This document shows, piece by piece, positions 3,347-26,842 of a stretch of DNA of 45,513 nt (positions are counted from its first letter, which is position 1; every line of letters starts with the position of its first letter). A program made the position numbers and the translations under genes. The stretch is from a bacterium (GTDB taxonomy: Bacteria > Margulisbacteria > WOR-1 > CAVSGV01): contig JBDRDU010000066.1 in the NCBI GenBank assembly GCA_043820455.1, positions 1 to 45,513 of the forward strand. Direction: 5' to 3'. The notes below the pieces were generated by a model that was given only the letters and a program-made list of their open reading frames with translations, searched no databases and was not told the DNA's origin.

Positions 3347-6300
3347 GGCCCTGGATGGATATCCGCTTATTCCGCGACCGCTACACAGACGATGGTTACC
3401 TGGGAAGGTGTTACGGAAATAACCTCTTATGAGGTTAAATATGGAGTAAGTCCTGAGTCTGAAACTTATACTTGGGCACCTACACCTGCTGACCAGAATT
3501 ATGGCGGCCCTATAACGGGCTTAACGAACAGGACATGGTACGAAATAAAGGTTAGGCAGCATACCGGTGCCAATGTCAGCGATTGGTCAGCCGTTGCCGG
3601 CTTCTTCACGATACCTGCCCCGACTAGCGTCATTCAGAACGGCTCAACTCTTACCACCGCGGATGTAACCTGGGAGGCTGTGGATATGGGTGGCGGGACG
3701 TTATGCACCTCTTATGAGGTAAGCTGGGGACTTACGCCGGAGGCCGTGGGAAGCGGAGAAGTCGTTACGAGCAGTGCCAATTATACGATAACAGAGTTAA
3801 CAACGGACCAAACTTATTATGTGAAAGTAAGGGCCAGAGATGATGCCAATAACGGCTGGAGCGAATGGGCTCCTTATCCGGCGCTGCAGGTTACTGCCAC
3901 GGAACACATCCTCCCTCCAGGGTGGTTGAACCATTACCTGGTCACTTCCCGCGAGGCGGTGATCAGCTGGGCGAGCGTCCTTTCAGCAGATAATTATATC
4001 ATCGAGTATAAGACAGTAAGTGAAGGGACCTGGAACAGAACGCCTGACATACCAAGCACATATAAGTATAATCCGGACGATCCTAACCCGAACTATCAGC
4101 TTACCGGACTTACATCGGATGCAACTTACGAGGTCAGAGTGATAGCAAAGGAAGGAGCCGAAGAAAGCGTGCCATCAACGGAAAATTCTTTCTTCACTCT
4201 GGAAAGACCGTGGGTAAGCCATGCTAATGTTACAGCGACGGACGCATATATATTGTGGGGTCCGGAGATAAGCACATCCGAGCTGAACATACTTAATGCT
4301 ACCGATTATGAGTATAGGTATAAAAAGCAGACTGATACAATATGGACCAGCGGCACCCAGCCCCTTGACAAAAAAGATGATGCGGCAATAGATACATTGA
4401 ACTTTGAGCTGAGCGGTCTGGATGCTTCTGTCACATACGAAGTGCAGATGAGGTCTGTCGGAAGCGGTGGCGTATCCGACTGGTCGTCCGTTGATTCTTT
4501 CGTTACCATAAAAGGCCCGTCATGGGTGGATGTGCGAGATATAGCCAATACCGATGCGCTCATATTCTGGGAGGATGTGAGCTCTCCGCAGTATGAGATC
4601 AAGTACAGCAAGGAGCCTTCAGCCGAAGGCGGGGCAGATCAGGTCGTTTCCGGTGCGACAGAGTATCATGCGACATCCCTTGATACTGCTACGACTTATT
4701 ATGTGAAAGTAAGGGCGGTGACCCCTGCCGGCGTTAGCGGCTGGTCATCGGTGAAGAGTTTCTTCACCATTTCCGGACCGTCGTGGATATCTAACTATTC
4801 TACAACGACAACGCAAACATCCTTGACCTGGGAAGGCGTCTCAGGCATAACCTCCTATGAGGTGAACTACGGCGTGAGCACAGAACCTATGTCATGGAAT
4901 TCGTGGGTCCCGACACCGCTGGATCAGAATTATGGCGGGCCTATAACAGGATTGACGGCAAGGACCTGGTATAAATTGAGAGTCAAGCAGCATACAGGCG
5001 CGAATGCAAGCGTATGGTCTGCTGTAGATGACTTTTTCACTATACCCGCTCCTGACGGTATCGCCCTTACAGGTTCAACCTTGACCACTGCGGATGTAAC
5101 ATGGGAGTCCGTGGACATGGGCGGAACGCTTTGCTCTTCTTACGAGGTAAGCTGGGGCTTGACCCCGGAAGCCGCAGGAAGCGGAAATGCCGTGACGGGC
5201 GATGTTTATTACAACATCACGGGGCTGACGGCGGGACAAACTTATTATGTAAAAGTAAGAGCTCGCGATGATGTAAATAAAGGGTGGAGCGACTGGGCGC
5301 CGTATCCGGTGCTTACTATCATTGCTACTGACCAAGCCACGGTTTATGGTGTGGATGTGGCAAGTGGATGGAAAGGAACCACTGTTCGGATAACCGGCCA
5401 GAACTTCGGCTCGACCACGGGAACGGTCTCATTCGGTGCCACCGCCGCGCAGGCCGGGTACTGGACGGACGACGAAATAGCTGTGTCCGTGCCGCCAAAT
5501 GCGGCCACTGGATCGAATAATATAACGATCATAGCAGCCGGAAACCCGGCTCAATTCGTATGCTCGAACGTGTTCAATGTTGAGGACAAAGGTTTTGTCA
5601 TGGACGACTTTGAGGGAGGAGCTTGGCAGTATTCCACCTGTGAAAGCGGCCCCGGCAATTCTGTTACTCTCACAAAGAATTACACTTTGCCTCCAGAGAG
5701 GGTGGCTTATCTCACCGCCGATTATGCGGGGACGGCCGCTTATGAGATAGCAGGAGGGGTTTCTCCTTACGGCGACCAGCCGGATGAGGATGGCTATGAT
5801 TTAAGCTCATATAACAAAATAAAACTCTGGTTCAAGGGTGACGGCTCAAGCAATGTCGCCACATTCGAGCTTATTGAAAGCAATACGTCCACAGGCAACA
5901 GCACAGAGCAATCGGAAGTATGGAGATACAGCGTGCCTATATCAATGGCAAGCACGGATTGGCAACAGATAACCATAAAACTTGCCATAGCAGGGTCCGG
6001 TAAATTTGAGCTGGATCCATGGTACACGGGGAACGGGACGCTTGATTTCAGCAAAATAAAAGCATATCAGATACTGACCGGCGGCGGGAATCCCAAATCT
6101 TTTGCCATAGACTATATTTATGCGACGACAGGAGGAGGAACGGTATCTAGTGTGTTTATTGCACGCGAGGCCGATGCGGTTGGCAGCAATATAAAAGTCA
6201 CATGGGAAGCTGATAGCGATGTGGATATTTATACTTACTCTGAAAGCGCGCCTTATTCCAATTATTATTCGGTTGATCCAGCTTCCTGGACCAAAGAATT

Positions 6301-7039: not shown

Positions 7040-7048
7040 GGAAAAAAT

Positions 7049-7080
7049 GAAATTACCAGAAGTATTTAACGATATATATA
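7049..7080 (+). promoter_or_regulatory. Shared upstream motif, copy A (GAAATTACCAGAAGTATTTAACGATATATATA). It may be a promoter or operator for the 1734-aa surface-protein gene.
   Basis: It aligns without gaps to 12412..12443 with 22 of 32 positions identical, including the block ATTT(A/G)ACGATATATATA. It sits 12 nt upstream of the ATG at 7093. TTACCA-N16-TATATA can be read as a sigma70-like promoter. Confidence 0.4.
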
Positions 7081-7092
7081 CAGGAGATAAAG

Positions 7093-10000
7093 ATGAATAG
7101 CAAAATCAAGAATTTAGCGGGTTCTTTAGTACTATCTCTGCTATTGGTGGGGTTGTGTTCTTCTGCCGCGTGGGCGGTCGCTGCTACGGCTAAGTGCGCT
7201 TCTGTAGCCAATGGAGGGACAGATAATTTTATTTATGACAGTTCCGGTGTAGGTGCGGTTAAATTACCCGCAGGTAAATATGTCCAAATCATTCAGTCTG
7301 ATGATGCTACTGCTGGAGCTCCAAATTCATCTACAGGTGTTCCCTCCGGAGATACGGTGGTGGTTACTGGAGAGATCGGCACTCCCACTGGCTATGGAGC
7401 CGGAGAAATTGCCAAGAGCGCTAATATCACCGCCAGCAAGTATATTTATATAAGGGCATGGGATACCTGGAATGGCACCGGAACGCCTTCAGGTTATTAT
7501 GGAACTTCAACTCCCGCAAATGTTGGCTCCGGATTCGTTTATTCTTATAAGCCAGTCAGTTTTGCTACCACTACGCAGATCAATGCGCCTGCTCTTGTAA
7601 GCGCCAGCCCCAACAGCGCTTATAAAGGCAGCTCAAATTTAAATGTGGTCATAACCGGGCAGAATACTAATTTTGTCAATGGGACTTCGGTGGCTTCTTT
7701 TAGCGGCACCGGAATTACCGTTAACAGCACCACAGTTTCAAGCTCGACACAGTGCACGGTTAATATTACTATTCCAACCAGTGCTTCAACCGGTGCCAGA
7801 AACGTTACGATCACTACCGGCAGCGAGATAGCTACCGGAGCCAGCCTGTTTACGGTCAACGCTCCTTCTCTTGGTGTGCCCAGCCCGGCCAGCAAGTATC
7901 GGGGAGACACGAGCTTTAACATATCAGTTTCCGGTACGGGGACACACTTTATAAATGGAACTACAACGGCTAGCTTCGGTACAGGTATCACCGTCAACAG
8001 CGTGACAGTGACCAGCGCCACAGCTGCAACGGTCAATATCACAATGATCTCCACCAGTGCGGCTACCGGTGCCAGGGATTTTTCAATGATCACTAATCTT
8101 GGGGCCCTGGGGACCGAAACGGTAACAAAAACCGGTGGATTTACCGTTAATGCTCCTTCTCTTAGTGCGCCCAGCCCGGCCAGCGGAAATCAAAGCTGGA
8201 CAGGTAATGTTGCTGTTTCCGGTACGGGCACACACTTTATAAACGGGACCACAACGGCTAGTTTTGGGACGGGCATAACTGTCAACAGTGTGACAGTGAC
8301 CAGTGCTACTGCTGCAACAGTTAATGTTACTATTGCCGATGATGCTGCAGAGGGAGCAAGAAATGTTGTCATGACCACTAACTTGGGGGCTCCGGGAACC
8401 GAAACGGTCACAAGGACCGGTGGGTTCACCGTTAATGCTGCCTCAGTCCCGACAGTTTCCACTGTTGCGCCGGAGGCTGGACCTGCGGGGACGGCGCCTT
8501 GGACGACTTATGTGAATATTACAGGGACTAATTTCGGTTCTTCTCAAGGGACAAGCAAAGTTTACTTTGATACTACGGATGCCGGGACCGCTGAGATATG
8601 GACAGCCACCCGGATCGTTATTGCGGTCCCCGCTGCTTTATCGGCGGGAACAAGCGATATTAAGGTGACCGTGAGCGGTCAGGACAGCAATACATATGCT
8701 TTCACCGTAAGGACAGGTCAGATGATCGACAATGCCGAAAGTACTGCCATGTATGATTACTATGATTCAGGGGCCGGAGTAGATGAAGCTAATATCCCGG
8801 TGCCATCTCTTACTACCGAAGCTTATTACGAAGGGCAGAAATCCATAAAGATCCAGTATCCGGGTGCAACGGGTACCCAATGGGGCGGTTTCTTGGCTGC
8901 AGGGATCAAGTCGCCTGTTACCGATCTGGACCTGAGTTCCGCGAACATGCTCATATATCGGGTCAAGGGGGATGGCACTGCCAATACCATAAGATTGGAT
9001 CTTGCTGAATATACCATGACTGCGGGGGACACTACCGAATCATTCAGCTCATTGGATAAATTCTCACTCTCAGACAATTCAGGTTTTAAAGAGTTCAAGG
9101 TTCCTTTATCCAGGATCTGGAGGGACAAATACAGCCAGTTCAAGGGGGATAATACCTTCTCCGGGAAGATAAAAGGCTATACCTTTGTCTATGGCGGAAC
9201 TGCATCCACTGCTCAGTATCATTATGTTGATGTAGTTTCGGCTGTTTCGTGGAGCGGGCCGATAGTTGATATCATTGGCCCCAACTTTGGACAAGCAGGT
9301 ACTGTTATTACCATCGAGGGTTCTGGTTTCGGATCTACAGGAACAATTGCATTTAACGGAACGGCTGCGACTGCTACTTCCTGGAACGATACCAGGATCG
9401 TAGTGCCGGTTCCTGCGGGGGCTGCTTCCGGGCCAGTAATTGTGACTGTTTCTTCTCAGACCAGCAATGGAGTATACTTTGAAGTTACTTCCGATGTTGG
9501 GCCGACCATTACATCTCTTTCGTCTACACTCGGTCCTTCGGGAACACTGGTGACCATAGAAGGCTCCGGGTTCGGGAGTGATCCGGGAGCTATCGATAGG
9601 TCCACTGCTGCAGAACATGTTACCTTTGGCACAACGCGGGTCTCGACTTCAGAGATCACCTCGTGGAACAATACTGCCATTACGGTTAAAGTCCCTACTT
9701 TAGCGGATGGCACTTATGAAGTACAAGTAAGGGCTGGTGACAAAGAAAGCAATCTTAAGAGCTTCATAGTAGCGCCTCTGCCGGCGTCCCTTGTCAGTGC
9801 TGATCCTTCCAGCGGCTATCAAGGTGATACGAATTTAAGCGTGGTCATTACCGGGCAGAATACTAATTTTGTGAACAATGTTTCCGCAGCTACATTCAGC
9901 GGCACTGGGATCACGGTCAATAGCACCACAGTTCAAAGTTCCACTCAGTGCACAGCTAACATTACTATATCCAGCGACGCTTCAGCCGATGCCAGAGATA

Positions 10001-12297
10001 TCACTGTCATTACCGGAAGCGAGATAGCTGCTGGAATCGGTTTATTCATGATTAATGTTGCGGCTCCATCCATTTCCACTGTTGCGCCGGAGGCGGGACC
10101 TGCGGGAACGGCGCCTTGGACGACATATGTGAATATTACGGGGACTAATTTTGGTTCTTCACAGGGTACAAGCAAAGTTTATTTTGGGACCACGGATGCT
10201 GGGACTTCCGAGATCTGGACAGCCACCCGTATCGTTATTGCAGTCCCTGCTTCTTTATCAGTGGGGGTGAGCAATGTCAAAGTGACCGTAAGCGGTCAGG
10301 ACAGCAATACCTCTGCATTTACCGTTGTGACCGGTCAGATGATAGATAACGCCGAAAGCGCCGCCATGTATGATTACTATGATTCGGGGGCTAATGGGGA
10401 CGAGGCAAATATCCCGGTGCCGGCCCGCACCACTGAGGCTTACTTTGATGGCCAGAAGGCACTGAAGATTCAGTATCCGGGGGCTACAGAGGATCCATTC
10501 CAGTGGGGTGGATACCTCGCTGCAGGGATCAAGTCTCCTGCGACTAACCTGGATATAAGCTCAGCCAATATGCTGGTTTACAGAGTCAAAGGAGACGGCA
10601 CTGCCAATACCATAAGATTGGACCTTGCCGAATACACCGTGACTGCAGGAGACACTACCGAATCCTTCAGCTCTCTGGATAAATTCCTGCTCTCTGACAA
10701 CTCGAGCTTTAAGGAGTTCAAGGTTCCTTTCTCGAGAGTGTGGAGGGACAAGTACAGTAAGTTCAAGGGCAACAATACATTCTCTGGCCTGATAAGCGGA
10801 TATACTTTTGTTTATGGTGGGACTATGTCCACTGCTCAATATCACTATGTTGACGCGGTCTCAGCTGTTTCCTGGAGCGGGCCTATAGTCGACATAATTG
10901 GCCCCAACTTTGGGCAGACGGGCGCCGTCATTACCCTGGAGGGATCAGGGTTCGGCTCTACGGGTACTATTACCTTTAACGGGACGTCTGCGACACCCAC
11001 TTTCTGGAGCAATACCAGGATCGTGGTGCCGGTCCCGGCCGGTGCGACTTCCGGCTCGGTTGTCGTGACCGTTTCTTCCCAAGCCAGCAATGGAGTTTAC
11101 TTTGATGTCACTTCCAGTACGGGGGCGGTCATTACGGGACTTTCATCTTATCTCGGCCCTTCCGGGACCGTTGTGACCATCGAAGGTTCCGGGTTCGGGA
11201 GTGATCCGGGGGCCATTAACAGGTCGACCGCGGCAGAACACGTCACATTTGGCACCACGCCGGTCGCAACTTCGGATGTTGTGTCATGGGGCAGCACCAG
11301 GATCGTGGTAAAGGTCCCGACAATGGCGAACGGCACTTATGAGGTCCAGGTAAGAGCGAATAATAAAGAGAGCGGCCTTAAGAGTTTCAGAGTGGCGCCA
11401 CTGCCTGCATCAATTCTTAGCGTCAGCCCATCTGTTGGCTATCAAGGGGATGTGAGTTTGAGCTTGGTTGTTACAGGGGGAAATACCAATTTTGTGAATG
11501 GTACCTCAGTGGCTATATTCAGCGGCACAGGGATCACGGTAAATAGCACCAGTGTTCAGAGTGCTACCCAGTGCACGGTCAATATCACGATCTCAAACGA
11601 TGCTACGGCAACTGCCAGAGATATCACGGTAACTACTGGCGGAGAGATAGCTACTGGAGCCGGCCTGTTTACGATCAATTCTCCTTCGTTTGCCAGCATT
11701 ACGCCAAACAGCGGAGCGCAGGGAACCACTCTCACCGGCGTTGTGATAGTCGGGACAGGGACTCATTTTATTAATGGAAGGACAGGCGTTCTGTTCCCCG
11801 TTGGCGGCCATTTTGGGATTACCAATGTTCAGGTTACAGATGCAACACATTTAACTTGCGATATTATTATAGGAGCTTCGGCAGCCACGGGTGCAATGGA
11901 TATTACAGTTGTAACAGACAATAACAGTTTCATTGAAGAAGTTGGGGGAGCGAATGTTTTCACCGTGACAAAGAGCGACGAGGATAACCGCATTTATGAA
12001 AAAGCCGGAGGCATAATGATGGCTTATCCGAACCCGTTCAACCCTGCGGATAAAGCAAGCCCGCTCAAGATGCTCTTCAATGCGGCTACCGGGGAAGCTG
12101 TGAATATATACATTTTTGATGCGAACGGAAGGATAATCTACCAGCACAGGGATGTTGCGCTGGAAGCGAACAGGATTGCCCAATGGGATGGAGAAACGTC
12201 ATACGGCGAGGTAGTTGATAACGGGCTCTACCTTATAAGGGTCGTAAAGGACGGAAAATTGGTCGCAAAAGGCAAGATCCTGGTCATAAAAAAATAA
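7093..12297 (+). CDS. Large secreted surface protein: signal peptide, Ig-like and IPT/TIG repeats, two CBM/CIA30-like modules, and a C-terminal 'PNPFNP' beta-sandwich sorting-type domain (FlgD-Ig-like / T9SS-CTD-like).
   Basis: AGGAGA Shine-Dalgarno sequence upstream. N-terminus MNSKIKNLAGSLVLSLLLVGLCSSAAWA. Repeated ...VVITGQNTNFVNGTS..FSGTGITVNSTTV..STQCT.NITI... and ...ITGTNFGSSQGTSKVYF... modules. C-terminus AYPNPFNPADK...IYIFDANGRIIY...WDGETSYGEVVDNGLYLIRV...KGKILVIKK. Confidence 0.85.
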   Translation: MNSKIKNLAGSLVLSLLLVGLCSSAAWAVAATAKCASVANGGTDNFIYDSSGVGAVKLPAGKYVQIIQSDDATAGAPNSSTGVPSGDTVVVTGEIGTPTGYGAGEIAKSANITASKYIYIRAWDTWNGTGTPSGYYGTSTPANVGSGFVYSYKPVSFATTTQINAPALVSASPNSAYKGSSNLNVVITGQNTNFVNGTSVASFSGTGITVNSTTVSSSTQCTVNITIPTSASTGARNVTITTGSEIATGASLFTVNAPSLGVPSPASKYRGDTSFNISVSGTGTHFINGTTTASFGTGITVNSVTVTSATAATVNITMISTSAATGARDFSMITNLGALGTETVTKTGGFTVNAPSLSAPSPASGNQSWTGNVAVSGTGTHFINGTTTASFGTGITVNSVTVTSATAATVNVTIADDAAEGARNVVMTTNLGAPGTETVTRTGGFTVNAASVPTVSTVAPEAGPAGTAPWTTYVNITGTNFGSSQGTSKVYFDTTDAGTAEIWTATRIVIAVPAALSAGTSDIKVTVSGQDSNTYAFTVRTGQMIDNAESTAMYDYYDSGAGVDEANIPVPSLTTEAYYEGQKSIKIQYPGATGTQWGGFLAAGIKSPVTDLDLSSANMLIYRVKGDGTANTIRLDLAEYTMTAGDTTESFSSLDKFSLSDNSGFKEFKVPLSRIWRDKYSQFKGDNTFSGKIKGYTFVYGGTASTAQYHYVDVVSAVSWSGPIVDIIGPNFGQAGTVITIEGSGFGSTGTIAFNGTAATATSWNDTRIVVPVPAGAASGPVIVTVSSQTSNGVYFEVTSDVGPTITSLSSTLGPSGTLVTIEGSGFGSDPGAIDRSTAAEHVTFGTTRVSTSEITSWNNTAITVKVPTLADGTYEVQVRAGDKESNLKSFIVAPLPASLVSADPSSGYQGDTNLSVVITGQNTNFVNNVSAATFSGTGITVNSTTVQSSTQCTANITISSDASADARDITVITGSEIAAGIGLFMINVAAPSISTVAPEAGPAGTAPWTTYVNITGTNFGSSQGTSKVYFGTTDAGTSEIWTATRIVIAVPASLSVGVSNVKVTVSGQDSNTSAFTVVTGQMIDNAESAAMYDYYDSGANGDEANIPVPARTTEAYFDGQKALKIQYPGATEDPFQWGGYLAAGIKSPATNLDISSANMLVYRVKGDGTANTIRLDLAEYTVTAGDTTESFSSLDKFLLSDNSSFKEFKVPFSRVWRDKYSKFKGNNTFSGLISGYTFVYGGTMSTAQYHYVDAVSAVSWSGPIVDIIGPNFGQTGAVITLEGSGFGSTGTITFNGTSATPTFWSNTRIVVPVPAGATSGSVVVTVSSQASNGVYFDVTSSTGAVITGLSSYLGPSGTVVTIEGSGFGSDPGAINRSTAAEHVTFGTTPVATSDVVSWGSTRIVVKVPTMANGTYEVQVRANNKESGLKSFRVAPLPASILSVSPSVGYQGDVSLSLVVTGGNTNFVNGTSVAIFSGTGITVNSTSVQSATQCTVNITISNDATATARDITVTTGGEIATGAGLFTINSPSFASITPNSGAQGTTLTGVVIVGTGTHFINGRTGVLFPVGGHFGITNVQVTDATHLTCDIIIGASAATGAMDITVVTDNNSFIEEVGGANVFTVTKSDEDNRIYEKAGGIMMAYPNPFNPADKASPLKMLFNAATGEAVNIYIFDANGRIIYQHRDVALEANRIAQWDGETSYGEVVDNGLYLIRVVKDGKLVAKGKILVIKK
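8455..11697 (+). repeat. Two-copy tandem duplication inside the CDS. Each unit is about 1.62 kb (8455..10071 and 10072..~11697) and encodes IPT + CBM-like + IPT + IPT + Ig-like modules.
   Basis: (G/A)TTTCCACTGTTGCGCCGGAGGC(T/G)GGACCTGCGGG starts both units. The proteins are colinear over about 540 aa (VSTVAPEAGPAGTAPWTTYVNITGTNFGSSQGTSKVYF...). By eye, nucleotide identity is roughly 80-90%. Copy 2 carries small in-frame insertions such as EDPF. Confidence 0.9.
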
Positions 12298-12411
12298 CCT
12301 GTCTATGCAGTTGCCTCTTTGGGGCTTCTTGGTTTCAGCATTTGCGTTAATTCGCGTTTGCCGAAGCCGGAAAATCCGCCGCGGACGGACAAAATCAAAA
12401 ACAAAAAAAGT

Positions 12412-12443
12412 GAAATAAATGAAGTGATTTGACGATATATATA
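12412..12443 (+). promoter_or_regulatory. Shared upstream motif, copy B (GAAATAAATGAAGTGATTTGACGATATATATA), upstream of the barrel-SLH gene.
   Basis: It has the same 32-nt register as 7049..7080 (22 of 32 identical). It lies 63 nt upstream of the ATG at 12507. Confidence 0.4.
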
Positions 12444-12506
12444 TAGAGGGGAAAGGAGCTCGGGGGGATAGGGGAATGGAACGTAATGCTAGGGGGACAT
12501 GATTCG

Positions 12507-15137
12507 ATGAATTTGCTTGGTGAAAGAATAAAGGCAAAAGGCAAAGGGCAAAAGGTAAAAAGTGTTTATTTTTTACTTTTAGCCTGCACTTTTGCCTTTT
12601 TGCTTTTTAATTTTGACTCTGTGTATGCTCTTACGGCAGACCCGATGGATGTTTCAGTGGGAGCAAGGTCAATGGGAATGGGCAAGGCATATGTGGCCGT
12701 CGCAGAAGATGCGGAAACTGTGTTCGTTAATCCGGCAGGACTTGGCGCCGTATCCTCACTGAAGCTGAGCAGCATGTATACAAGCCTTCTTGATGATATG
12801 AACTACACTGTCATTTCCGGTGTATATCCTATGGACAATAATTCCGGCACGCTCGGAGCGGGTATCGTAAATCAGGTTGTGTCGGACATCCGTCTTTACA
12901 ATGACTACGGGACGGCTGAAGGCACTGGCACATACGGAAGCAACGTCTTTTTCGTTTCTCACGGGTTCGATCTTAGCAAAAAGATATTTCCTTACACTAA
13001 GAACCTCTATGGCGGATATACCCTTAAATATTTCATGAAGAGCGCGTCAGGGTTGGGCGCTTCGGACATGTCGGGGAGCGGTTTTGCCGCGGATATGGGT
13101 TTGTTATATAAGCCAAAGGGCTATGTGTCATATGGATTGACCTTGCAGAACATAATTGCCGGAACGATGAACTATGCCAGCGGACAGGAAGATGAGATCG
13201 GTTCTGCGATGAAGGTCGGAACGCAAGTGGCCGTTATGGGAGACGTCATGGACGGAGGAGCTATTTATCAGAGCGATTCAAAAGTTGATGTGGCGTGTGA
13301 TTATGATATAGGCATCAGGGGAAAAGTCCCTGCAACACTTCACTTGGGGGCGGAATATCAACCTCAGATCGGCGTTAATTACATAGACAGGATATTGACC
13401 CTTAGGGGGGGTATCAACCAGATCCCGACCCCGGCAGGGAGCGTAAGTAATATTACAATGGGCGTCGGTGTTAATTACCAGGGCGTCGAATTTAACTATG
13501 CTTACAGCCCTATGTACGGAGACATCCCAGGAACATCGACGCAATTCTTTTCCATATCATATGTAGGGGTACCGACGCCGGTAAAGCCGATAGAAGAAAT
13601 GAAACCGTTGATCTCGCAGGCGCCGTTGCTCAAGAATGTAACGCCTGATGACAAGGTCATTACAGGGAATCAGGCTGTCCTTATCCGGGGAGCTGTGGGC
13701 AACCCGGCAGATATCGCAAAAGTGGAGATAAATAATGTAGGGGTCAATGTTTCGGATACAGGCTCGTTCAATATGAACGTTCCGCTTTCAACGGTCGGGA
13801 AACATCTTGTAGATGTTCGCGCGACGGATGTAACAGGAAAGACCGAGGAGCGCCAGATAAAGGTCATAAGGCTCATGAAATTTGCGGACATTTCCGAGAA
13901 TCACTGGGCGTCGCTTCCCATAGGGGAGCTTGCTACTGTCGGCTTGATCGAAGGGTATCCGAACGGTACATTCCAGGCGGACAGGGCGCTGTCACGCGCG
14001 GAACTTGCCACGCTTCTTGTGAAGAGCAAGGGGATCGAGCCGCCTGCGGTCACGACAAGAACGTTCAAAGATATGCCGCCTTCGCACTGGGCTGCAAGAT
14101 ATGTAAAGAGCGCGCTTGCCATGGGGCTTGTCAATGGATATCCGGACGGGACGTTCAAGCCGAACAATAAGATAACGAGGACGGAAGGCGTGGTGGTCCT
14201 TACAAGGTTCAATGAACTTCAACAGCAGGCTTCGCTTCCATCAGGCCCGTATCCGGACCTTACGGCGAGATTCTGGGCATCGCCTTTCATAGCGTCAGCT
14301 CGAAGCGCGGGACTGCTTGATTACATCGGGGATAATGATTTTGAACCCAAGAGAGAGCTTACGAGGGCGGAAGCCGTTGAAATACTTTCAAAGACGAATT
14401 ACGGCAAAGCAAGGCTGAGCAGCCTGCTTGACTGGAACGTTGGATTTGAACCTGAGATCGCAAGGCCTGCAGTGGCCGCATATCCGACCCCGGCCGTTAG
14501 TCCTTCTGCCGGAATGTACGGAAGGCCTATGGCAGGGAGTGGTGCCGTGACCCAGCAGATAAGGGAATTTGCGGATGTACCCGATGGGTTTTGGGCGAAT
14601 AATTCAATAAAATATCTTGCCGCTGCCGGTGTTATGAACGGATATCCGGACGGGATGTTCAAGCCGGACAGGATCGTGACAAGGGCGGAGCTGGCTTCCA
14701 TGCTTGTAAAAGCAAAAAACATTCCAATAAGAAGTGTTTACACGACAGCATATTCGGATGTTTCAAGGCAAAGCTGGGCGGCGTCATACATAAAGGCTGC
14801 AGTTGATGCAGGTTATGTAACAGGGAGAAAAGGCAACAAGTTCGAACCGGATAGAGGGGCAACAAGGGCAGAAGCGGTTGCTGCACTGGTCAAGTTCGAC
14901 AATTTGGAGCTTCCGGCGAACCTTCGCGCAGGGCCGTTCATGGATATGACAGCGAAAGAGTGGTCATCCAAATATGTGGCTGCTGCAAAAGATGCCGGGA
15001 TGCTGGATTACCTGCAGGGACAGGATTTTGAAGCGGAAAAATCCATAACCAGAGCTGAACTTGCAGAGCTGATCTCAAAGACAAGATACGGGCAAGCTAA
15101 GATAGAACAGATAAAATCTGCCGGCGTATACGAGTAA
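12507..15137 (+). CDS. Outer-membrane beta-barrel protein (PorV/PorQ-like) with an Ig-like module and six C-terminal SLH domains.
   Basis: The ATG at 12507 has an AGGGGGA Shine-Dalgarno sequence 9 nt upstream. The ORF-track start at 12486 is the alternative. Signal peptide ...FLLLACTFAFLLFNFDSVYA. Barrel-opening motif VGARSMGMGKAYVAVAEDAETVFVNPAGLG, and an alternating strand pattern through ...TQFFSISYVG. Six repeats match the SLH pattern, for example FADISENHWA...GYPNGTFQADRALSRAELATLLVK, in two triplets separated by a Pro/Ala linker. Confidence 0.8.
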   Translation: MNLLGERIKAKGKGQKVKSVYFLLLACTFAFLLFNFDSVYALTADPMDVSVGARSMGMGKAYVAVAEDAETVFVNPAGLGAVSSLKLSSMYTSLLDDMNYTVISGVYPMDNNSGTLGAGIVNQVVSDIRLYNDYGTAEGTGTYGSNVFFVSHGFDLSKKIFPYTKNLYGGYTLKYFMKSASGLGASDMSGSGFAADMGLLYKPKGYVSYGLTLQNIIAGTMNYASGQEDEIGSAMKVGTQVAVMGDVMDGGAIYQSDSKVDVACDYDIGIRGKVPATLHLGAEYQPQIGVNYIDRILTLRGGINQIPTPAGSVSNITMGVGVNYQGVEFNYAYSPMYGDIPGTSTQFFSISYVGVPTPVKPIEEMKPLISQAPLLKNVTPDDKVITGNQAVLIRGAVGNPADIAKVEINNVGVNVSDTGSFNMNVPLSTVGKHLVDVRATDVTGKTEERQIKVIRLMKFADISENHWASLPIGELATVGLIEGYPNGTFQADRALSRAELATLLVKSKGIEPPAVTTRTFKDMPPSHWAARYVKSALAMGLVNGYPDGTFKPNNKITRTEGVVVLTRFNELQQQASLPSGPYPDLTARFWASPFIASARSAGLLDYIGDNDFEPKRELTRAEAVEILSKTNYGKARLSSLLDWNVGFEPEIARPAVAAYPTPAVSPSAGMYGRPMAGSGAVTQQIREFADVPDGFWANNSIKYLAAAGVMNGYPDGMFKPDRIVTRAELASMLVKAKNIPIRSVYTTAYSDVSRQSWAASYIKAAVDAGYVTGRKGNKFEPDRGATRAEAVAALVKFDNLELPANLRAGPFMDMTAKEWSSKYVAAAKDAGMLDYLQGQDFEAEKSITRAELAELISKTRYGQAKIEQIKSAGVYE
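12530..12612 (+). repeat. Hairpin-forming module with an A-rich arm and a T-rich arm, inside the 5' coding region. It is translated as the signal-peptide n-region and h-region.
   Basis: AAAGGCAAAAGGCAAAGGGCAAAAGGTAAAAAGTG - loop - CACTTTTGCCTTTTTGCTTTTT. The arms are imperfectly complementary. The T-arm matches the flgI module at 21 of 25 nt: CCTGCACTTTTGCCTTTTTGCTTTT versus CCTGTACTTTTTCCTTTTTCCTTTT. Confidence 0.55.
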
Positions 15138-15142
15138 GCACT

Positions 15143-15171
15143 AAATCCTAAATTCAAAATTCTAAAATTCC
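15143..15171. repeat. Left arm of an imperfect inverted repeat flanking the csoR-like cassette.
   Basis: AAATCCTAAATTCAAAATTCTAAAATTCC. With one 1-nt gap it matches the reverse complement of 15526..15554 (AAATCCAAACTTCAAACCTCAAAATCCCA) at about 24 of 29 positions. Confidence 0.55.
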
Positions 15172-15173
15172 GC

Positions 15174-15203
15174 TTGACAAAATATACCCCATACCTGTAT
15201 AGT
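15174..15203 (+). promoter_or_regulatory. Sigma70-type promoter: TTGACA-N18-TATAGT.
   Basis: TTGACA lies at 15174..15179 and TATAGT at 15198..15203. The spacer is one nt longer than optimal. The promoter sits directly upstream of the csoR-like gene. Confidence 0.55.
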
Positions 15204-15209
15204 GTATAT
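15182..15209. promoter_or_regulatory. Candidate operator: a 28-bp imperfect palindrome overlapping the -10 element.
   Basis: ATATACCCCATACC|TGTATAGTGTATAT has 11 of 14 symmetric pairs, giving the half-site ATATACnCnATAC. Its position fits autoregulation by the adjacent CsoR/RcnR-family repressor. Confidence 0.4.
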
Positions 15210-15222
15210 CAAGGTTCAAAAT

Positions 15223-15483
15223 ATGACCAATGCAGGCAAAGAAGGAACAATAAAAAGGCTTAACCGCATAAAAGGGCAGGTGGAGGGGATACTTCGCATG
15301 ATGGAAGGGTCCAAATCTGCTATAGACGTATTTCACCAGATCTCCGCGGCAAGAAAAGCGCTTGATTCGACCGGAAGGTTGATATTGGAGAACTACATCA
15401 GGGAAAATCTGTCAGGGGTTTCAAGGTCAAAGGAGGAAAGCGACAAGATAAGAGAAATAATTAAAATAATGGAAAAATTCTGA
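15223..15483 (+). CDS. CsoR/RcnR/FrmR-family (DUF156) transcriptional repressor that lacks the canonical sensing ligands.
   Basis: RLNRIKGQVEGILRMMEGSKSAIDVFHQISAARKALDSTGRLILENYIRENL aligns with the CsoR helical core. The ATG at 15223 is preferred because the ORF-track start at 15202 lies inside the predicted -10 element. The protein contains no Cys. Confidence 0.75.
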   Translation: MTNAGKEGTIKRLNRIKGQVEGILRMMEGSKSAIDVFHQISAARKALDSTGRLILENYIRENLSGVSRSKEESDKIREIIKIMEKF

Positions 15484-15525
15484 ACATAGAACTTAGGATA
15501 TGTTTGGGATTTGGATGTTTTGGGT

Positions 15526-15554
15526 TGGGATTTTGAGGTTTGAAGTTTGGATTT
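15526..15554. repeat. Right arm of the inverted repeat flanking the csoR-like cassette. It is embedded in a longer G/T-rich low-complexity tract at 15503..15555.
   Basis: TGGGATTTTGAGGTTTGAAGTTTGGATTT. The preceding TTTGGGATTTGGATGTTTTGGGT reiterates the same GGATTT-type unit. Confidence 0.55.
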
Positions 15555-15568
15555 ATTGAAGGGGGTGT

Positions 15569-17710
15569 ATGTGTATGATAGAATACAAGAAGATGAATAG
15601 AGCCAAAAGGATGATCTTTGCAGGGGTGATGTTGTTCCTTTTCCTTGTCGTGCCTGCGACTTTAGCGGGGGAGGTATTCGCGTTTTCGTTCCCTCCTGCG
15701 AAAGGAACTGTAGAAGCGCCGAAGGCGGTAAGCAGGTTTGATGCGCCTCCCGTGGCCACGGACTGGCCGACTTTCCATGGGGATGTTGCCAGAAGCGGGG
15801 CTTCCGCCGAAAAATACATAATGCCGCCTCTTTCCATCAGATGGGGATTTTCTACGGGAGGAAATATTTGGTCTTCTCCTGCGGTGGTCGCAAAGACCCT
15901 TTTTATTGGATCGTCTGACGGGAAATTGTACAGCTTGGACGTTTTGGACGGAAGCATGAGATGGGCGTTTAAAACGGGCAATGCGATCTTCTCTTCCCCG
16001 GCGATTGAAAAAGGGACTGTTTATTTTGGTTCGTCAGACCATCTGTTATATGCGTTGGATGCCGAAAGCGGGCTTTTAAAATGGGCTTTTGAGACCGGCG
16101 ATCCGGTAACATCGTCACCGGCGGTCCTTGATGGCGTGGTCTACTTCGGCTCATGGGATGGCTTCCTTTACGCCCTGGCGACCGATGGAAGATTGAAATG
16201 GCAATATCAGACAGGAGGGGCGGTATATTCATCTCCCGCTCTGTCCCGCGGGAAGGTCTTTTTCGGATCGTCCGATGGAAAGATCTATGCGTTAGATGCG
16301 GAAAAGGGGACCCCTGTTTGGGTTTTCCAAACCGACGATTATATTTCTTCCACCCCGACCATCTCGGGGAAGATAGTCTATGTCGGGTCATGGGACGGCA
16401 ATATGTACGCTTTAAGCAGTGACGACGGAAAGCTGTTATGGAAATTCAGGACAGGAGCGGGTATTTATTCTTCGCCGGCAGTATTTGAAGATACGATCAT
16501 ATTCGGTTCGTATGACAGCAAGCTTTACTGTCTTGACAAGTACAAGGGCATATTAAAATGGTCTTATTACTCAAAAGATTCCGTGTACCATTCATCCCCT
16601 GTCGTTGCTAACGGAGTTGTTTATGTGGGGCTGGGGTACAAGAACAAGGTGCAGGCATTTAATGCGAGGACAGGGGAATATTTATGGAGTTCCCCGACAG
16701 GCGCATCCGTCGGCGCTTCACCCGCCATTTCAGAAACGAACATGTATATAGCGGCATCGGACGGCAAAATATACGCTTTTGGGGACATTGAGCAGCCGGA
16801 TGCAAAAGTGGATACCCTTAAGCCGGCTTTCAATAAGTATGATTTCTTGGTCAGCTGGACAGGGGTGGACAAAGGGGGATCCGGAATAAGTTCTTACGAC
16901 ATCCAGTTCAGGACGGGGGCGGGCGAGTACTGGCAGAATTGGCTGACGGGGGTGACGACCACATCCGCGATTTTCGGCCCTTATGAACCGATAGAGGTTA
17001 GGGATACTACAGTTTATTATTTCCAGGCGCGTGCTCATGATAATGCAGGGAATAGCGGGGATTATGCCGGAGGGGACGGCGACACACACACGGGAATAGA
17101 CCTGACTCCCCCAAGGATCAGGAAGGTCAGCATAAACAATGTTCAGGTGCAGACAGGAAGCTTCATAAATTCCAAACCGCTCATTCAAGCTTCCATAAGC
17201 GACAATGTTTCCGTGGACCCTGACAGCCTGAGAGTATATATTGATACTAAAGAATTCACTCCGGATAGCTTCATTAACGGTTTAATGAAATATAAGCATA
17301 AGGCCCCCATCAGCCCGGGCAAGCACAATATAATGGTCATTGCCGCTGACGTATCCGGGAACAAAGCGGAACCATGGGAGATCAAGGGGATAAGGGTTTC
17401 GGAGGGGATAGAGGCAGCCGATATATCGGCTTTCCCGACGCCTTTCAACCCTCTGGCAGGGCCCGTTTATATTTCTTACAGGCTTAACGCGAATGCGGAA
17501 ACTAACATATTCATTTACGATAAATACGGGTCTCTGATCTGCTCGATGAAATTCGAAGAAAAAGAGAACGGAGGCAAAAGAGGCTGGAACAAGATCGCGT
17601 GGAACGGCGTTACGGGATCTGACAGCATTGTAGGGAACGGAGAATACTTCTTTAAGATAGTGGCCAACAGGAATCTTGTGGGCAAAGGGCAGATCGTAGT
17701 GCAAAAATGA
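15569..17710 (+). CDS. Secreted PQQ-like (BamB-type) beta-propeller protein with FN3/Ig-like modules and the same 'P-x-PFNP' C-terminal sorting-type domain.
   Basis: GAAGGGGG Shine-Dalgarno sequence. Signal peptide ...MLFLFLVVPATLAGEVFA. There are more than eight repeats of the pattern G.IYSSPA....V(Y/F)FGS.DG.LYALD...G...W.F.T. C-terminus AFPTPFNPLAG...IFIYDKYGSLI...WNGVTGSDSIVGNGEYFFKIV...GKGQIVVQK. Alternative in-frame starts lie at 15575 and 15593. Confidence 0.85.
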   Translation: MCMIEYKKMNRAKRMIFAGVMLFLFLVVPATLAGEVFAFSFPPAKGTVEAPKAVSRFDAPPVATDWPTFHGDVARSGASAEKYIMPPLSIRWGFSTGGNIWSSPAVVAKTLFIGSSDGKLYSLDVLDGSMRWAFKTGNAIFSSPAIEKGTVYFGSSDHLLYALDAESGLLKWAFETGDPVTSSPAVLDGVVYFGSWDGFLYALATDGRLKWQYQTGGAVYSSPALSRGKVFFGSSDGKIYALDAEKGTPVWVFQTDDYISSTPTISGKIVYVGSWDGNMYALSSDDGKLLWKFRTGAGIYSSPAVFEDTIIFGSYDSKLYCLDKYKGILKWSYYSKDSVYHSSPVVANGVVYVGLGYKNKVQAFNARTGEYLWSSPTGASVGASPAISETNMYIAASDGKIYAFGDIEQPDAKVDTLKPAFNKYDFLVSWTGVDKGGSGISSYDIQFRTGAGEYWQNWLTGVTTTSAIFGPYEPIEVRDTTVYYFQARAHDNAGNSGDYAGGDGDTHTGIDLTPPRIRKVSINNVQVQTGSFINSKPLIQASISDNVSVDPDSLRVYIDTKEFTPDSFINGLMKYKHKAPISPGKHNIMVIAADVSGNKAEPWEIKGIRVSEGIEAADISAFPTPFNPLAGPVYISYRLNANAETNIFIYDKYGSLICSMKFEEKENGGKRGWNKIAWNGVTGSDSIVGNGEYFFKIVANRNLVGKGQIVVQK

Positions 17711-18963
17711 TATCTAATGATGGTTTTGTCGGAAAGATCGCCGAACTTGAAGGCGTCACCAGAGAAAAAATATTAAAAGGGCTCAGCTCCGGAGAGATCG
17801 TGATCCCGTACAACAAGATCCATTCTCCTCTTCATCCCATAGCGATAGGCACCGGACTTCGCACAAAGGTTAACGCCAATATAGGGACGTCAAAAGGATT
17901 CAGCGATCTTTCTCTTGAGCTCGAAAAAGTAGAGGTATGCATTAAGAACAAGGCAGATGCGATAATGGACCTCTCTGTGGGCGGGGATCTGGACGAGACA
18001 AGGCAGGCGATAATCAACGCTTCAACGCTTCCTGTAGGGACCGTTCCCATTTATCAGGCAGTAATAGAAGCGAGTTCAATAGAGAAAATGACCGCCGACA
18101 TAATGTTCAGGGCCATCGAAAAACATGCTCGGTCGGGGGTGGACTTCATAACGGTCCACTGCGGCGTGACAAGGGCTCTGGTCAAGAGGATACGCGGTAA
18201 AAAGCGTATCATGGACATAGTCAGCCGCGGAGGCGCTTTTCTTTACAGGTGGATGATCGTGAAGGAAAAAGAAAATCCTCTGTATGAACAATATGACAGG
18301 CTGCTTGAGATCGCGAAAAAATACGGCGTTACATTGAGCCTTGGGGACGGAATGAGGCCGGGCTGCATAGCTGATGCGGGGGATATGCTCCAGATGGGGG
18401 AATTAAAGGTCCTTGGGGCTCTGGCAAAAAGAGCCCGCAGGGCGGGAGTCCAGGTGATCATCGAAGGTCCGGGGCATGTTCCCTTGGACAAGATAGAAGA
18501 ACAGATAAAAATAGAGAAAAAGATATGCAACAAGGCGCCTTTTTATGTGCTGGGGCCTCTTCCCACAGATATTGCTCCCGGGTGGGACCATTTGACCTCT
18601 GCTATTGGCGGAGCGATCGCGGCGGCGGCAGGGGCGGATTTCCTCTGCTATGTGACCCCGTCCGAGCACCTCGGGCTCCCGAACCTGTCCGACGTAAAGG
18701 ACGGCATAATCGCGTCACGGATCGCTGCGCATATAGGCGATATAGTTAAAGGCGTAAAAGGCGCAAGAGAATGGGATGTTAAAATGTCAAAAGCGAGAAA
18801 AGCCCTGAAATGGGAAGAGCAGATCGAACTGGCGGTGGATCCCGTTACGGCAGCGGAAATAAGGGATATGAGGTCTGCAAGGGAAAAATCGGATACCTGT
18901 ACCATGTGCGGGGAATTCTGCGCAATGAAAGTGGTCTCAGAATCAAAGAAGCTGAAAAAATGA
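17707..18963 (+). CDS. thiC: Phosphomethylpyrimidine synthase ThiC (short form).
   Basis: 418-aa product with conserved ThiC core blocks and the C-terminal CTMCGEFCAMK (CX2CX4C) cluster motif. The start overlaps the upstream stop (ATGA). Confidence 0.9.
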   Translation: MISNDGFVGKIAELEGVTREKILKGLSSGEIVIPYNKIHSPLHPIAIGTGLRTKVNANIGTSKGFSDLSLELEKVEVCIKNKADAIMDLSVGGDLDETRQAIINASTLPVGTVPIYQAVIEASSIEKMTADIMFRAIEKHARSGVDFITVHCGVTRALVKRIRGKKRIMDIVSRGGAFLYRWMIVKEKENPLYEQYDRLLEIAKKYGVTLSLGDGMRPGCIADAGDMLQMGELKVLGALAKRARRAGVQVIIEGPGHVPLDKIEEQIKIEKKICNKAPFYVLGPLPTDIAPGWDHLTSAIGGAIAAAAGADFLCYVTPSEHLGLPNLSDVKDGIIASRIAAHIGDIVKGVKGAREWDVKMSKARKALKWEEQIELAVDPVTAAEIRDMRSAREKSDTCTMCGEFCAMKVVSESKKLKK

Positions 18964-19892
18964 AGGCACCCCAGATCGGCGAATTCAAGTTGATCGATAC
19001 AATAAGAAAGAACAATCCCGCTAAAGACAAAAGCGTTCTTGTCGGGATAGGGGATGATGCGGCAGCCGTCAAGGACGGGGCAGGCGGATACATCCTTATG
19101 ACGACGGATACTTTGGTCGAAAACATTCATTTCAACCTTAAATACTGCACATTTTACGAGCTGGGATGGAAGCTTCTCGCGGTGAACCTTTCTGACATCG
19201 CTGCAATGGGAGGTATCCCTAAGTATGCGCTTGTTACTTTGGGCATTAAAAAAGACACAGGTCTTTCTGGTATCAACGCTTTTTATACGGGGATCCGTTC
19301 TCTTGCTCGAAAGACCAAGGTTGATGTTGTCGGAGGGGATATTGTCAGCTCCCCAAATAACCTGTTCTTTACCATCGGGCTGTTTGGCGTTGCGGAAAAA
19401 GTGGTCAGAAGGAGCGGAGCAAGACCCGGCGACGCAATAGTTTCCATTGGGAAGGTTGGCGGGTCCGCGGTAGGCTTCGCATCCTTGAAAAAAAACCGCA
19501 GAAAAGCGTTAAGGATAAAGGGATCGATCGCGAAAGCTCATCTTATGCCGTTCCCCATGATCAAGGAAGGCCTCAACGCTTCCAGGCACGCGACCGCAAT
19601 GATAGATAACAGCGACGGACTTGCAAGATGCCTTATCGAAATATGCAAAGAAAGCAAAGTCGGCGCAAGGATCTATTCATACAATATCCCTCTCGCAGAA
19701 GATGCAAGCCTTGAGGATGGACTTAATGGAGGAGAGGATTATAATCTGATCTTGACCGTTCCAAAGAACAAAGTTGGCTACATCAGAAAAGGCATAGTTA
19801 TCGGAGAGGTGACGGGATCGAAGAAGATAGTTTTGATCGATAGGTCAGGCAGGGAAAAGGTCCTGAAGGACAAGGGGTACGAGCACTTTTGA
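18960..19892 (+). CDS. thiL: Thiamine-monophosphate kinase ThiL.
   Basis: MKAPQIGEFKLIDTI..., GIGDDAAAV, TTDTLVENIHF and AVNLSDIAAMGG. The ATG at 18960 overlaps the thiC stop. The ORF-track start at 18810 lies inside thiC. Confidence 0.85.
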   Translation: MKAPQIGEFKLIDTIRKNNPAKDKSVLVGIGDDAAAVKDGAGGYILMTTDTLVENIHFNLKYCTFYELGWKLLAVNLSDIAAMGGIPKYALVTLGIKKDTGLSGINAFYTGIRSLARKTKVDVVGGDIVSSPNNLFFTIGLFGVAEKVVRRSGARPGDAIVSIGKVGGSAVGFASLKKNRRKALRIKGSIAKAHLMPFPMIKEGLNASRHATAMIDNSDGLARCLIEICKESKVGARIYSYNIPLAEDASLEDGLNGGEDYNLILTVPKNKVGYIRKGIVIGEVTGSKKIVLIDRSGREKVLKDKGYEHF

Positions 19893-21007
19893 TAAACAAA
19901 AAAAGATTGGTCAGCAGGTTCATTAAATACGTAAAGGTGGACAGCCTTTCAAAAAAAGAAGCCGGATTCTTGAGGCTTATAAAGAAAGAGCTTTCAGGGA
20001 TGGGCATAAAGTCCGTTGAGGACAGGGCGGGACGGCATTTTGGAGGCGACTGCGGTAACCTTTACGCTTTTATTAAAGGCAATGCAGCCCATGCTCCAAG
20101 GATGCTCTTTAACGCTCATATCGATACTGTAATGCCGGGAGAGAATATCAAACCGCGGATAAAAAAAGGAAAGATCGTTAGCGACGGGACCACTGTATTG
20201 GGTGCGGATAATAAAGCCGGCGTTGCGGTCATAATGGAAGCACTAAAGACCTTAAAGGAGCGGAAATTGCCTCACGGCGACATAGATGTTCTGTTCACCG
20301 TGGCGGAAGAAATAAGCCTTATGGGTTCGAAATTCGTGAACAGGAAATTCCTGAAAGCTGACTTCGGTTATGTCCTGGACGGAGGAGATACTGACAAGAT
20401 CATAAACAAGGCGCCTTCGCAGGATTCAATAAAGATAAAGATCACGGGACGCGCTGCCCATGCGGGAGTGCATCCGGAGCAGGGGGTGAACGCCATTCAA
20501 GTCGCTTCAGCCGCGATATCAAAAATGAAGATAGGAAGGATCGACCGCGAGACCACCTCTAATATCGGCATTATAAGCGGCGGTGTCGCCACCAATATCG
20601 TTCCGGAAACCGTTATTATTAAGGGAGAGGCAAGAAGCCATGATGCCAAGAAATTAAAGCGTCAGATAGCGCATATGAAAAACGTCCTTCACAAGGCCTG
20701 CGCAAGATACGGGGCAAAGCTTCAATGTAACATAGAGCCTTCTTACAGAGCGTTCGAGGTCCCGATGGGGCACGAAGCTTTGATCCTGGCAAAAAGAGCC
20801 GCCAAAAATATCGGATTGAAGCCGAAGATCAAGGCGACCGGAGGCGGGAGCGACGCGAATATATTCTCTTCTTACGGGCTGCCTTGTTTGATCCTCGGCG
20901 TTGGCGCGGACAATGTCCATACGAAGAATGAAAATATATCCGTAAATGACCTAGCGGCGGGAGCGCATCTGCTTCTTAATATAATAAAGGAAAGCTTAAG
21001 TTGTTAG
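19889..21007 (+). CDS. M20-family metallopeptidase (peptidase T-like tripeptidase).
   Basis: Metal and catalytic motifs HIDTV, GADNKAG and TVAEE(I)S, plus a dimerisation-domain insert. Length is 372 aa. The start overlaps the thiL stop. Confidence 0.8.
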   Translation: MINKKRLVSRFIKYVKVDSLSKKEAGFLRLIKKELSGMGIKSVEDRAGRHFGGDCGNLYAFIKGNAAHAPRMLFNAHIDTVMPGENIKPRIKKGKIVSDGTTVLGADNKAGVAVIMEALKTLKERKLPHGDIDVLFTVAEEISLMGSKFVNRKFLKADFGYVLDGGDTDKIINKAPSQDSIKIKITGRAAHAGVHPEQGVNAIQVASAAISKMKIGRIDRETTSNIGIISGGVATNIVPETVIIKGEARSHDAKKLKRQIAHMKNVLHKACARYGAKLQCNIEPSYRAFEVPMGHEALILAKRAAKNIGLKPKIKATGGGSDANIFSSYGLPCLILGVGADNVHTKNENISVNDLAAGAHLLLNIIKESLSC

Positions 21008-24910: not shown

Positions 24911-24953
24911 TTTCATGCTGAGCATGTTTCACGCTTGAGGAGGAAGGTTTAAT

Positions 24954-26841: not shown

Positions 26842-26842
26842 A

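Follow-up and report, generated by a model that had tools for sequence, protein, structure and literature searches.

Layout of the gene and its product

The stretch analysed here (the window) is the 45,513-nt contig JBDRDU010000066.1 of assembly GCA_043820455.1, from a bacterium of the Margulisbacteria (WOR-1; CAVSGV01). Its gene at 12507..15137 (+) encodes 876 aa plus stop, in which an outer-membrane β-barrel of PorV type is followed in the same chain by an immunoglobulin (Ig)-like domain and two complete triads of S-layer homology (SLH) repeats. The upstream partner gene (7093..12297, +) encodes a 1,734-aa protein with a signal peptide, TIG repeats and CBM11-like modules (Pfam), ending in a type IX secretion system (T9SS) C-terminal domain (CTD) of type A (TIGR04183, 12010..12294, +). 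The pairing of these two genes, which recurs in related genomes, is what suggests a function for the barrel–SLH protein.

The reading frame is open without a break from 12486 to 15137 and has two possible starts, of which the ATG at 12507, with a Shine–Dalgarno-like AGGGGGA 9–10 nt 5′ of it, is favoured over the upstream ATG at 12486. The gene product is recorded at NCBI as MFH1710037.1 (876 aa), under the automatic name “PorV/PorQ family protein.”

The AlphaFold2 model, computed from an alignment of 60 homologues, has a mean predicted local distance difference test (pLDDT) score of 84.5 and a predicted template modelling (pTM) score of 0.45, the latter making the relative placement of its domains unreliable. 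From N- to C-terminus it consists of a short helical hatch, 14 strands, a β-sandwich and two SLH triads with a disordered linker between them. Ahead of the hatch lies a putative Sec-type signal peptide (12507..12629, +) with a Lys-rich n-region, a hydrophobic core and a VYA/LT cleavage-like site, a region in which the model has a helix at aa 15–34 of low pLDDT. A lipoprotein reading of this N-terminus (LLAC) was discarded, as the cysteine falls within the hydrophobic core and the consensus of the family does not retain it. The hatch or plug segment (12630..12761, +) carries the FadL/PorV-type motif G-M-G-K-A-Y … N-P-A-G, with N75 and P76 invariant among 60 homologues, and A77 and G78 almost so.

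Behind the barrel (12762..13562, +), a Pro-rich linker of ~22 aa (13563..13628, +; predicted disorder, pLDDT <50 at aa 359–370) leads to an Ig-like β-sandwich of Glucodextran_B type (13629..13874, +), whose strands at aa 375–455 have pLDDT >90 and which Pfam PF09136 matches with 32.6 bits (cutoff 27). The first SLH triad (13875..14450, +) and the second (14559..15134, +) are separated by a disordered Pro/Ala-rich linker of 36 aa (14451..14558, +; pLDDT <50 at aa 652–681). An earlier, sequence-only reading of this DNA had proposed the same order of barrel, Ig-like module and two times three SLH repeats, and it is borne out by Pfam, NCBIfam, AlphaFold2 and Foldseek: the Pfam scan confirms six SLH stretches (E 2.4e-58), 14 strands can be counted in the model, and the domain boundaries given in that reading agree with the refined coordinates to within a few codons.

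A barrel of the PorV/PorQ family

The assignment of the barrel rests on the model, on Foldseek, on profile comparison and on the NCBIfam model PorV_fam. DSSP finds the 14 strands between aa 86 and 352 of the AlphaFold2 model, and PorV_fam (NF033709, a model at subfamily level) matches aa 55–359 of the 883-aa open reading frame (ORF) with 98.8 bits (cutoff 90). The top Foldseek matches in the PDB are PorV chains of the T9SS translocon (8gl6_F and 6h3i_F, TMt 0.64–0.68); SLH triads from Sap and SpaA come next in the ranking, and then FadL-type channels. A phmmer search of the PDB with a single barrel-plus-Ig sequence gave no match, and a family profile was needed: the profile of 30 family barrels found F. 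johnsoniae PorV (6h3i_F, 8gl6) with an E-value of 3.9e-27, and FadL chains with an E-value of ~0.006 over ~45 hatch residues only. From these two values the barrel is specifically PorV-like and not merely FadL-like, so that among the PorV, PorQ and FadL families considered in the sequence-only reading both profile and fold point to the PorV type. By its NCBIfam scores the protein belongs to the PorV/PorQ family in the broad sense but is no equivalog of PorV or of PorQ. The Pfam families PorP_SprF and OmpA_C were not matched by the protein.

The hatch nevertheless brings up another reading, namely a FadL/TodX-type channel for the uptake of hydrophobic compounds that is only incidentally anchored to the wall. 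The NPA motif in the hatch is FadL-like, FadL, TbuX and TodX are among the fold matches of Foldseek, and a precomputed match to Pfam Toluene_X (PF03349) is present on some homologues. The protein itself, however, has no match to PF03349 at E ≤ 1, the profile match to FadL is confined to the short hatch stretch and is dwarfed by that to PorV, and the invariant CTD-gene neighbour described below would go unexplained. We therefore regard an uptake channel as very unlikely.

Outer-membrane barrels with an even number of strands have both their N- and their C-terminus in the periplasm. With 14 strands, the C-terminal Ig–SLH tail of this PorV-like barrel should therefore be periplasmic, and we infer that the Ig-like domain is a spacer there.

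The SLH tail and its predicted wall binding

All six repeats carry the motif [ST]R[AT]E (SRAE, TRTE and TRAE in triad 1, and TRAE in each repeat of triad 2), and a motif of TRAE type is retained in most homologues, in both triads. Using phmmer, triad 2 aligns over all three repeats with the SLH domain of B. anthracis Sap (6bt4, 3pyw; E 3e-21), and Foldseek superposes the tail on the SLH triads of Sap (3pyw) and SpaA with TMt 0.75–0.84, the highest value being that for 3pyw (0.84). Within the protein, the two triads share 43% identity, while triad 2 copies from different proteins group together, which argues for one old duplication of which both copies have remained intact. Sap (B. anthracis) and SpaA (P. 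alvei) likewise form a pseudo-trimer from three tandem SLH repeats with TRAE motifs, but they anchor S-layer proteins outside a monoderm wall, whereas here two such modules would hang in the periplasm from a barrel.

An SLH triad in one chain binds pyruvylated secondary cell-wall polymer, while in OmpM three chains together make up the SLH unit (PMC10628300). A monomeric barrel cannot form such a unit by trimerisation, which would explain why the triad is present here in cis. Because both triads keep their ligand-binding motifs, the protein, as predicted from these motifs, must join outer membrane and wall polymer. The pyruvyl transferase gene csaB is not among the genes of the 45.5-kb window; a supplementary table of Witwinowski et al. 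lists CsaB for genomes of Saganbacteria and Margulisbacteria.

The tail is not always built of SLH repeats. Several sister PorV-like barrels carry a SPOR domain (P0245, P0329, P0300) or a LysM domain (P0253, P0263, P0112) where the SLH triads would be, suggesting that the tail is an interchangeable wall-binding module. Three further relatives of ~1,100 aa (P0287, P0322 and P0350) have C-terminal extensions of ~770 aa without a recognisable domain, and more distant barrel relatives from Elusimicrobiota are fused to TPR repeats.

Distribution of the fusion

A search with the full-length protein returned ~40 clusters of 840–910 aa that span the entire query at 40–79% identity, and ~40 further clusters of 600–660 aa that end after triad 1. 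These relatives come from assemblies of JGI, ENA, NCBI and Logan, and those with a name belong to WOR-1/Saganbacteria and Margulisiibacteriota; the RecG protein of the window also has its nearest named relatives in Margulisiibacteriota and Saganbacteria (51–57% identity). With the barrel alone, an exhaustive phmmer search at E ≤ 1e-3 gave 4,458 representative clusters, 77 of them at E ≤ 1e-30. In a set of 138 new top representatives, one SLH triad is present in 57 and two are present in 11, three have the Ig domain without an SLH match, and 67 have neither SLH triad nor Ig domain, being either a barrel alone or a barrel with a tail of another type.

The sequence-only reading had considered that the arrangement might be an assembly chimera. 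An artefact of assembly or gene calling, by which a barrel gene would have been joined to an SLH gene, is hardly conceivable and was rejected: a single frame runs through the gene without a break, the domain order is kept at 40–79% identity in independent assemblies from all four sources and in the related loci L001–L008, ~40 protein clusters with two triads and more than 50 with one triad show it, and the AlphaFold2 model is confident in all folded parts. The recurrence of the architecture in dozens of independently assembled Margulisiibacteriota and Saganbacteria relatives thus argues for a genuine fusion. The same reading had held the architecture to be undescribed, which is correct in one respect and not in another. 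The literature searched contains no description of a PorV-type barrel fused to SLH triads, SPOR or LysM, nor of a one-to-one pairing of such a barrel with type-A CTD clients, and neither the fusion nor the CTD pairing is described there for Margulisiibacteriota or Saganbacteria. The family itself, however, is common in metagenomes and is annotated automatically, as “PorV/PorQ family” or “SLH domain-containing.”

Comparison with known barrel–wall fusions

The protein shares with OmpM of Negativicutes, SlpA of Deinococcus and the cyanobacterial SLH porins the presence of SLH and an outer-membrane barrel in one chain, joining outer membrane and wall in Terrabacteria-type diderms. OmpM has a single N-terminal SLH domain, a coiled-coil stalk and a C-terminal trimeric porin, so that three chains contribute to each SLH unit (PMC10628300). 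Here the order is reversed, the coiled coil is replaced by an Ig domain and Pro-rich linkers, the barrel is a 14-strand one of PorV type, and one or two full triads are present per chain. The NCBIfam model por_somb (NF033921) matches via SLH only (47.9 bits, cutoff 100), and Witwinowski et al. do not include members of the family in their curated OmpM column. As the defining layout of OmpM is lacking, the protein should not be classed as an OmpM.

The sequence-only reading was thus right that the domain order, barrel first and SLH last, is the reverse of that in OmpM and SlpA, but a barrel followed by a wall binder has precedents. In OmpA, the barrel is N-terminal and a periplasmic domain that binds peptidoglycan forms the C-terminal part; its barrel has 8 strands and its wall binder is an OmpA_C domain, which the protein described here lacks. 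Negativicutes trimeric autotransporters such as VtaG have a periplasmic, wall-binding SLH domain C-terminal to the barrel (bioRxiv 10.64898/2026.01.22.700529), and in both the position and the presumed role of the SLH domain they resemble our protein. They differ from it in having a 12-strand trimeric anchor, one SLH per protomer and a covalent passenger, where we find a monomeric barrel, triads in cis and a client that would be a separate protein. The parts and the general logic of the design therefore have precedents, while the fusion to SLH and the pairing with a client appear new.

Nor is the protein an alternative to OmpM for its lineage, as the words “distinct solution” in the sequence-only reading might suggest. 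The Saganbacteria genomes that contain members of the family also have separate OmpM and CsaB proteins listed in the table of Witwinowski et al., and two family members, OGC03766.1 and OGC07149.1, appear there in the SLH column only, the OmpM column being filled by other proteins. Since related genomes also have OmpM, outer-membrane tethering would be a secondary function of the barrel–SLH protein: it follows from the design but is probably not its main purpose. Tethering in Terrabacteria-type diderms has so far been described as the work of OmpM alone, and the family adds a second, modular way of joining a barrel to the wall. As the reference survey of tethering counted its members as SLH proteins only, inventories of barrel-plus-SLH proteins are incomplete.

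Pairing with genes for type-A CTD proteins

A feature that the sequence-only reading had overlooked is the partner gene. The last ~90 residues of the upstream partner match TIGR04183 with 33.8–34.7 bits (cutoff 23). We took 11 related loci from reference genomes, built a local CTD hidden Markov model (HMM) from seven tails and ran it on every ORF. It identified 16 CTD-bearing ORFs in ~227 kb, all 16 of them at most ~1.3 kb from a PorV-like barrel gene, and in 11/11 loci with flanking sequence the CTD gene directly adjoins the barrel gene, a count that is conditioned on the barrel, as the loci were picked because a barrel was present. TIGR04183 is matched by 13 of the 16 neighbouring tails at E ≤ 0.01, and a profile of all 16 matches best, within the PDB, the CTD of PorU (6za2, E 7e-6) and that of PorZ (5m11).

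The pairing is found for barrels with two triads (the window, L002 and L003), for barrels with one triad (L004–L009) and for barrels without a tail (L007 9469..10728, L010 and L011), and L005 and L007 each have two CTD-gene/barrel-gene pairs in tandem. When ORFs were clustered over 12 loci, the barrel and the CTD protein were the sole families that recurred across loci, and a third conserved partner (translocon, sortase or csaB) was not found among them. Distances among CTDs correlate with distances among the barrels they pair with (Mantel r 0.87, p ≤ 1e-4, a correlation inflated by shared phylogeny). The two pairs of L007 have diverged from each other, in both genes, as much as pairs from distant genomes have, a paralogue pattern which shows that CTD/barrel pairs duplicate and diverge as units.

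These patterns bear on the generic tether between outer membrane and peptidoglycan that the sequence-only reading had in mind; the barrel would then be a mere anchor, and the proximity of the CTD gene would have no mechanistic meaning. The architecture necessarily joins the outer membrane and the wall polymer, SLH, SPOR and LysM tails are interchangeable on sister barrels, and both SLH triads are conserved, all of which such a tether would account for. It would leave unexplained why the barrel is homologous to PorV rather than to porins, and it fits poorly with the separately listed OmpM and CsaB of related genomes and with the co-divergence of CTD and barrel. The tail-less barrel paralogues still adjoin CTD genes: because they keep this adjacency, the conserved pairing belongs to the barrel and not to tethering. 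We consider a generic tether unlikely; the conserved pairing points to a specific job beyond it.

The CTD partners also resemble each other outside the CTD. They share an N-terminal region of ~200 aa, 50–57% identical across distant genomes (7093..~7800 in the window; 6793..~7500 and 11875..~12500 in L005), while their TIG-repeat middle varies from 570 to 1,900 aa and contains, in the protein of the window, a duplicated block of ~600 aa. In L004, two near-identical tandem barrel–Ig–SLH genes with equal HMM scores (7849..9741 and 9959..11872) follow one CTD gene, and could stem from a recent duplication or be a repeat produced in assembly.

A candidate wall-fixed receptor for CTD proteins

PorV binds type-A CTDs through its extracellular loops and is a mobile carrier, which must leave the SprA translocon (PMC10994853), and PorU and PorZ are the two type-A CTD proteins that PorV and PorQ keep permanently on the surface (PMC12365241). 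We favour, by a modest degree, a reading in which the barrel–SLH protein is a static, wall-fixed receptor of PorV/PorQ type that holds its cognate CTD surface protein on the outer membrane. The barrel would span the outer membrane with its two termini on the periplasmic side, and its extracellular loops would hold the CTD of the neighbouring gene product at the cell surface, as in PorV–PorU and PorQ–PorZ of Porphyromonas. The Ig domain and the Pro-rich linkers would cross the periplasm, and the SLH triads would attach to the pyruvylated secondary cell-wall polymer that the peptidoglycan carries, triad 2, on its flexible 36-aa linker, adding avidity or reach. The outcome would be a static staple that connects surface protein, outer membrane and cell wall. 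Since canonical PorV must be mobile, a version bound to the wall would be a static anchor, and a PorV-type barrel with exchangeable wall binders seems designed around the retention of a specific surface protein, and not of the membrane itself.

The nearest homologues in structure, PorV and PorQ (PDB 6H3I, 8GL6 chain F), have the homologous 14-strand FadL-type barrel and hold proteins with type-A CTDs, the kind of protein encoded next to the barrel here. In their canonical form they have no periplasmic tail and are not bound to the wall, and PorV, being mobile, serves all type-A cargo, whereas the protein here is fused to Ig and three or six SLH repeats, stands one-to-one beside its client and belongs to the Margulisiibacteriota/Saganbacteria lineage. 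The closest functional parallel comes from the PorP/SprF system of Flavobacterium and Porphyromonas. In Bacteroidota the gene for a type-B CTD protein has its cognate PorP/SprF barrel gene directly downstream, and type-B CTD adhesin, PorP/SprF and the peptidoglycan-binding PorE have been proposed to form static, wall-anchored complexes (PMC12618676). Those complexes comprise three proteins, with OmpA_C in the lipoprotein PorE as the wall binder and a CTD of type B; here a single chain comprises barrel and wall binder, the binder is SLH (SPOR or LysM in sister proteins) and the CTD is of type A. If the wall-fixed receptor is correct, one polypeptide merges what PorP and PorE do jointly in Bacteroidota.

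Several observations weigh against such a receptor. A wall-fixed PorV is a departure from the known mechanism, in which the carrier is mobile (PMC10994853). The cutoffs of the equivalog models are missed by far, with 30.9 bits against 250 for PorV (NF033710), 31.9 against 220 for PorQ (NF033711) and 40.1 against 325 for PorV2 (NF052325). SprA/Sov, PorK/L/M/N and PorU were not found in the window, and no T9SS core gene was found in the 10-kb flanks of the 11 loci, among which only the flanking ORFs of L005 were scanned with Pfam. To these are to be added the lack of csaB in the window, the unreliable domain placement in the model and the part of shared phylogeny in the Mantel correlation.

The same homology would also suit a conventional, mobile PorV-type carrier with a full T9SS elsewhere in the genome, whose SLH tail biases its localisation or acts after delivery. 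The profile homology to F. johnsoniae PorV is strong, the neighbouring tails are type-A CTDs, and barrels of the PorV/PorQ family are widespread beyond Bacteroidota. Two SLH triads per chain would, however, immobilise a barrel that, as a T9SS carrier, has to be pulled off the translocon, and one barrel gene per client is at odds with the PorV pattern of one carrier for all type-A cargo. Moreover, no T9SS core gene lies in any flank looked at, and the literature searched offers no link between Margulisbacteria and type IX secretion, nor anything relevant on Saganbacteria with an outer membrane or a secretion system. We judge a mobile carrier to be improbable, even more so than a generic tether.

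The wall-fixed receptor could be taken further, although we do so only tentatively and with some doubt: recognition between CTD and PorV-type barrel may operate in Margulisiibacteriota and Saganbacteria without the T9SS of Bacteroidota, as a self-contained two-gene module in which every giant surface protein has a PorV-like barrel of its own, stapled to the wall by SLH, SPOR or LysM. In that case the pair of CTD and PorV would be a means of anchoring that is older than type IX secretion or independent of it, and another route would be needed for proteins of 1,000–2,000 aa across the outer membrane. Whichever holds, homologues of two hallmarks of the T9SS, PorV and the type-A CTD, stand side by side in a phylum without reported type IX secretion. 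Margulisiibacteriota and Saganbacteria are sister lineages of Cyanobacteria, and neither CTD/PorV pairs nor a wall-fixed carrier would have been expected there. This raises the questions of whether the interaction between CTD and carrier is older or wider than the T9SS, and whether a carrier is able to serve as a fixed anchor.

Other genes and features of the window

Upstream of the CTD partner lies the first gene of a trio, for a giant fn3-rich protein (35..7039, +; fn3 x8 in Pfam) whose 5′ end is cut by the contig edge. The order giant protein, CTD protein, barrel is found in the window and, with the giant gene at 12..7082, 441..7592 and 1897..6774, in L002, L003 and L005. A tandem unit of 303 nt, present six times with 70–74% matches (38..1868), codes for the fn3 repeats. 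The last ~100 aa of the giant protein (6737..7036), which end in LVPGKGYM..NW.Q.KPY, match no Pfam family and are 53% identical to those of a distant WOR-1 orthologue, a conservation above that of the barrel; this tail, a conserved C-terminal domain, could be another sorting or docking signal.

On the other side of the barrel gene, a PQQ-type β-propeller protein (15569..17710, +; Pfam), whose gene is syntenic in L002 and L003, has a CTD-like end (17423..17707). This tail reaches 24.5 bits with the T9SS type B model (cutoff 35), is weakly matched by FlgD_ig, and scores 121 bits with the local CTD HMM, of which it is itself one of the seven building sequences. The propeller protein is a possible second client of the barrel.

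Between the barrel and propeller genes lies a gene for a CsoR-type metal-sensing repressor (15202..15483). A scan of 6900..17800 for promoters and terminators gave no more sites than shuffled sequence did; the region's only near-consensus sigma-70 promoter, agreeing at 11/12 positions, is that of the repressor gene, at 15174..15203. Around the WOR-1 double locus L005 there are six ORFs (37..1892 and 15731..20783), one of 841 aa and two with lipoprotein-like N-termini, which have no Pfam match and no homologue in the other loci.

Further downstream in the window, genes for MreB, MreC, PBP2 and a SPOR-domain protein occupy 24185..29104, followed by a flagellar cluster (30124..42670) with the L-ring protein FlgH (34438..35034), the P-ring protein FlgI (35036..36082), FliF, FliG, FliH, FliI and FliJ. 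This cluster, with genes for both the FlgH and the FlgI ring, shows directly that the host is a flagellated diderm. Directly behind the propeller gene, the ORFs for ThiC (17707..18963) and for an AIR-synthase-like protein (18810..19892) overlap by ~150 nt, and the true start of the latter probably lies further downstream.

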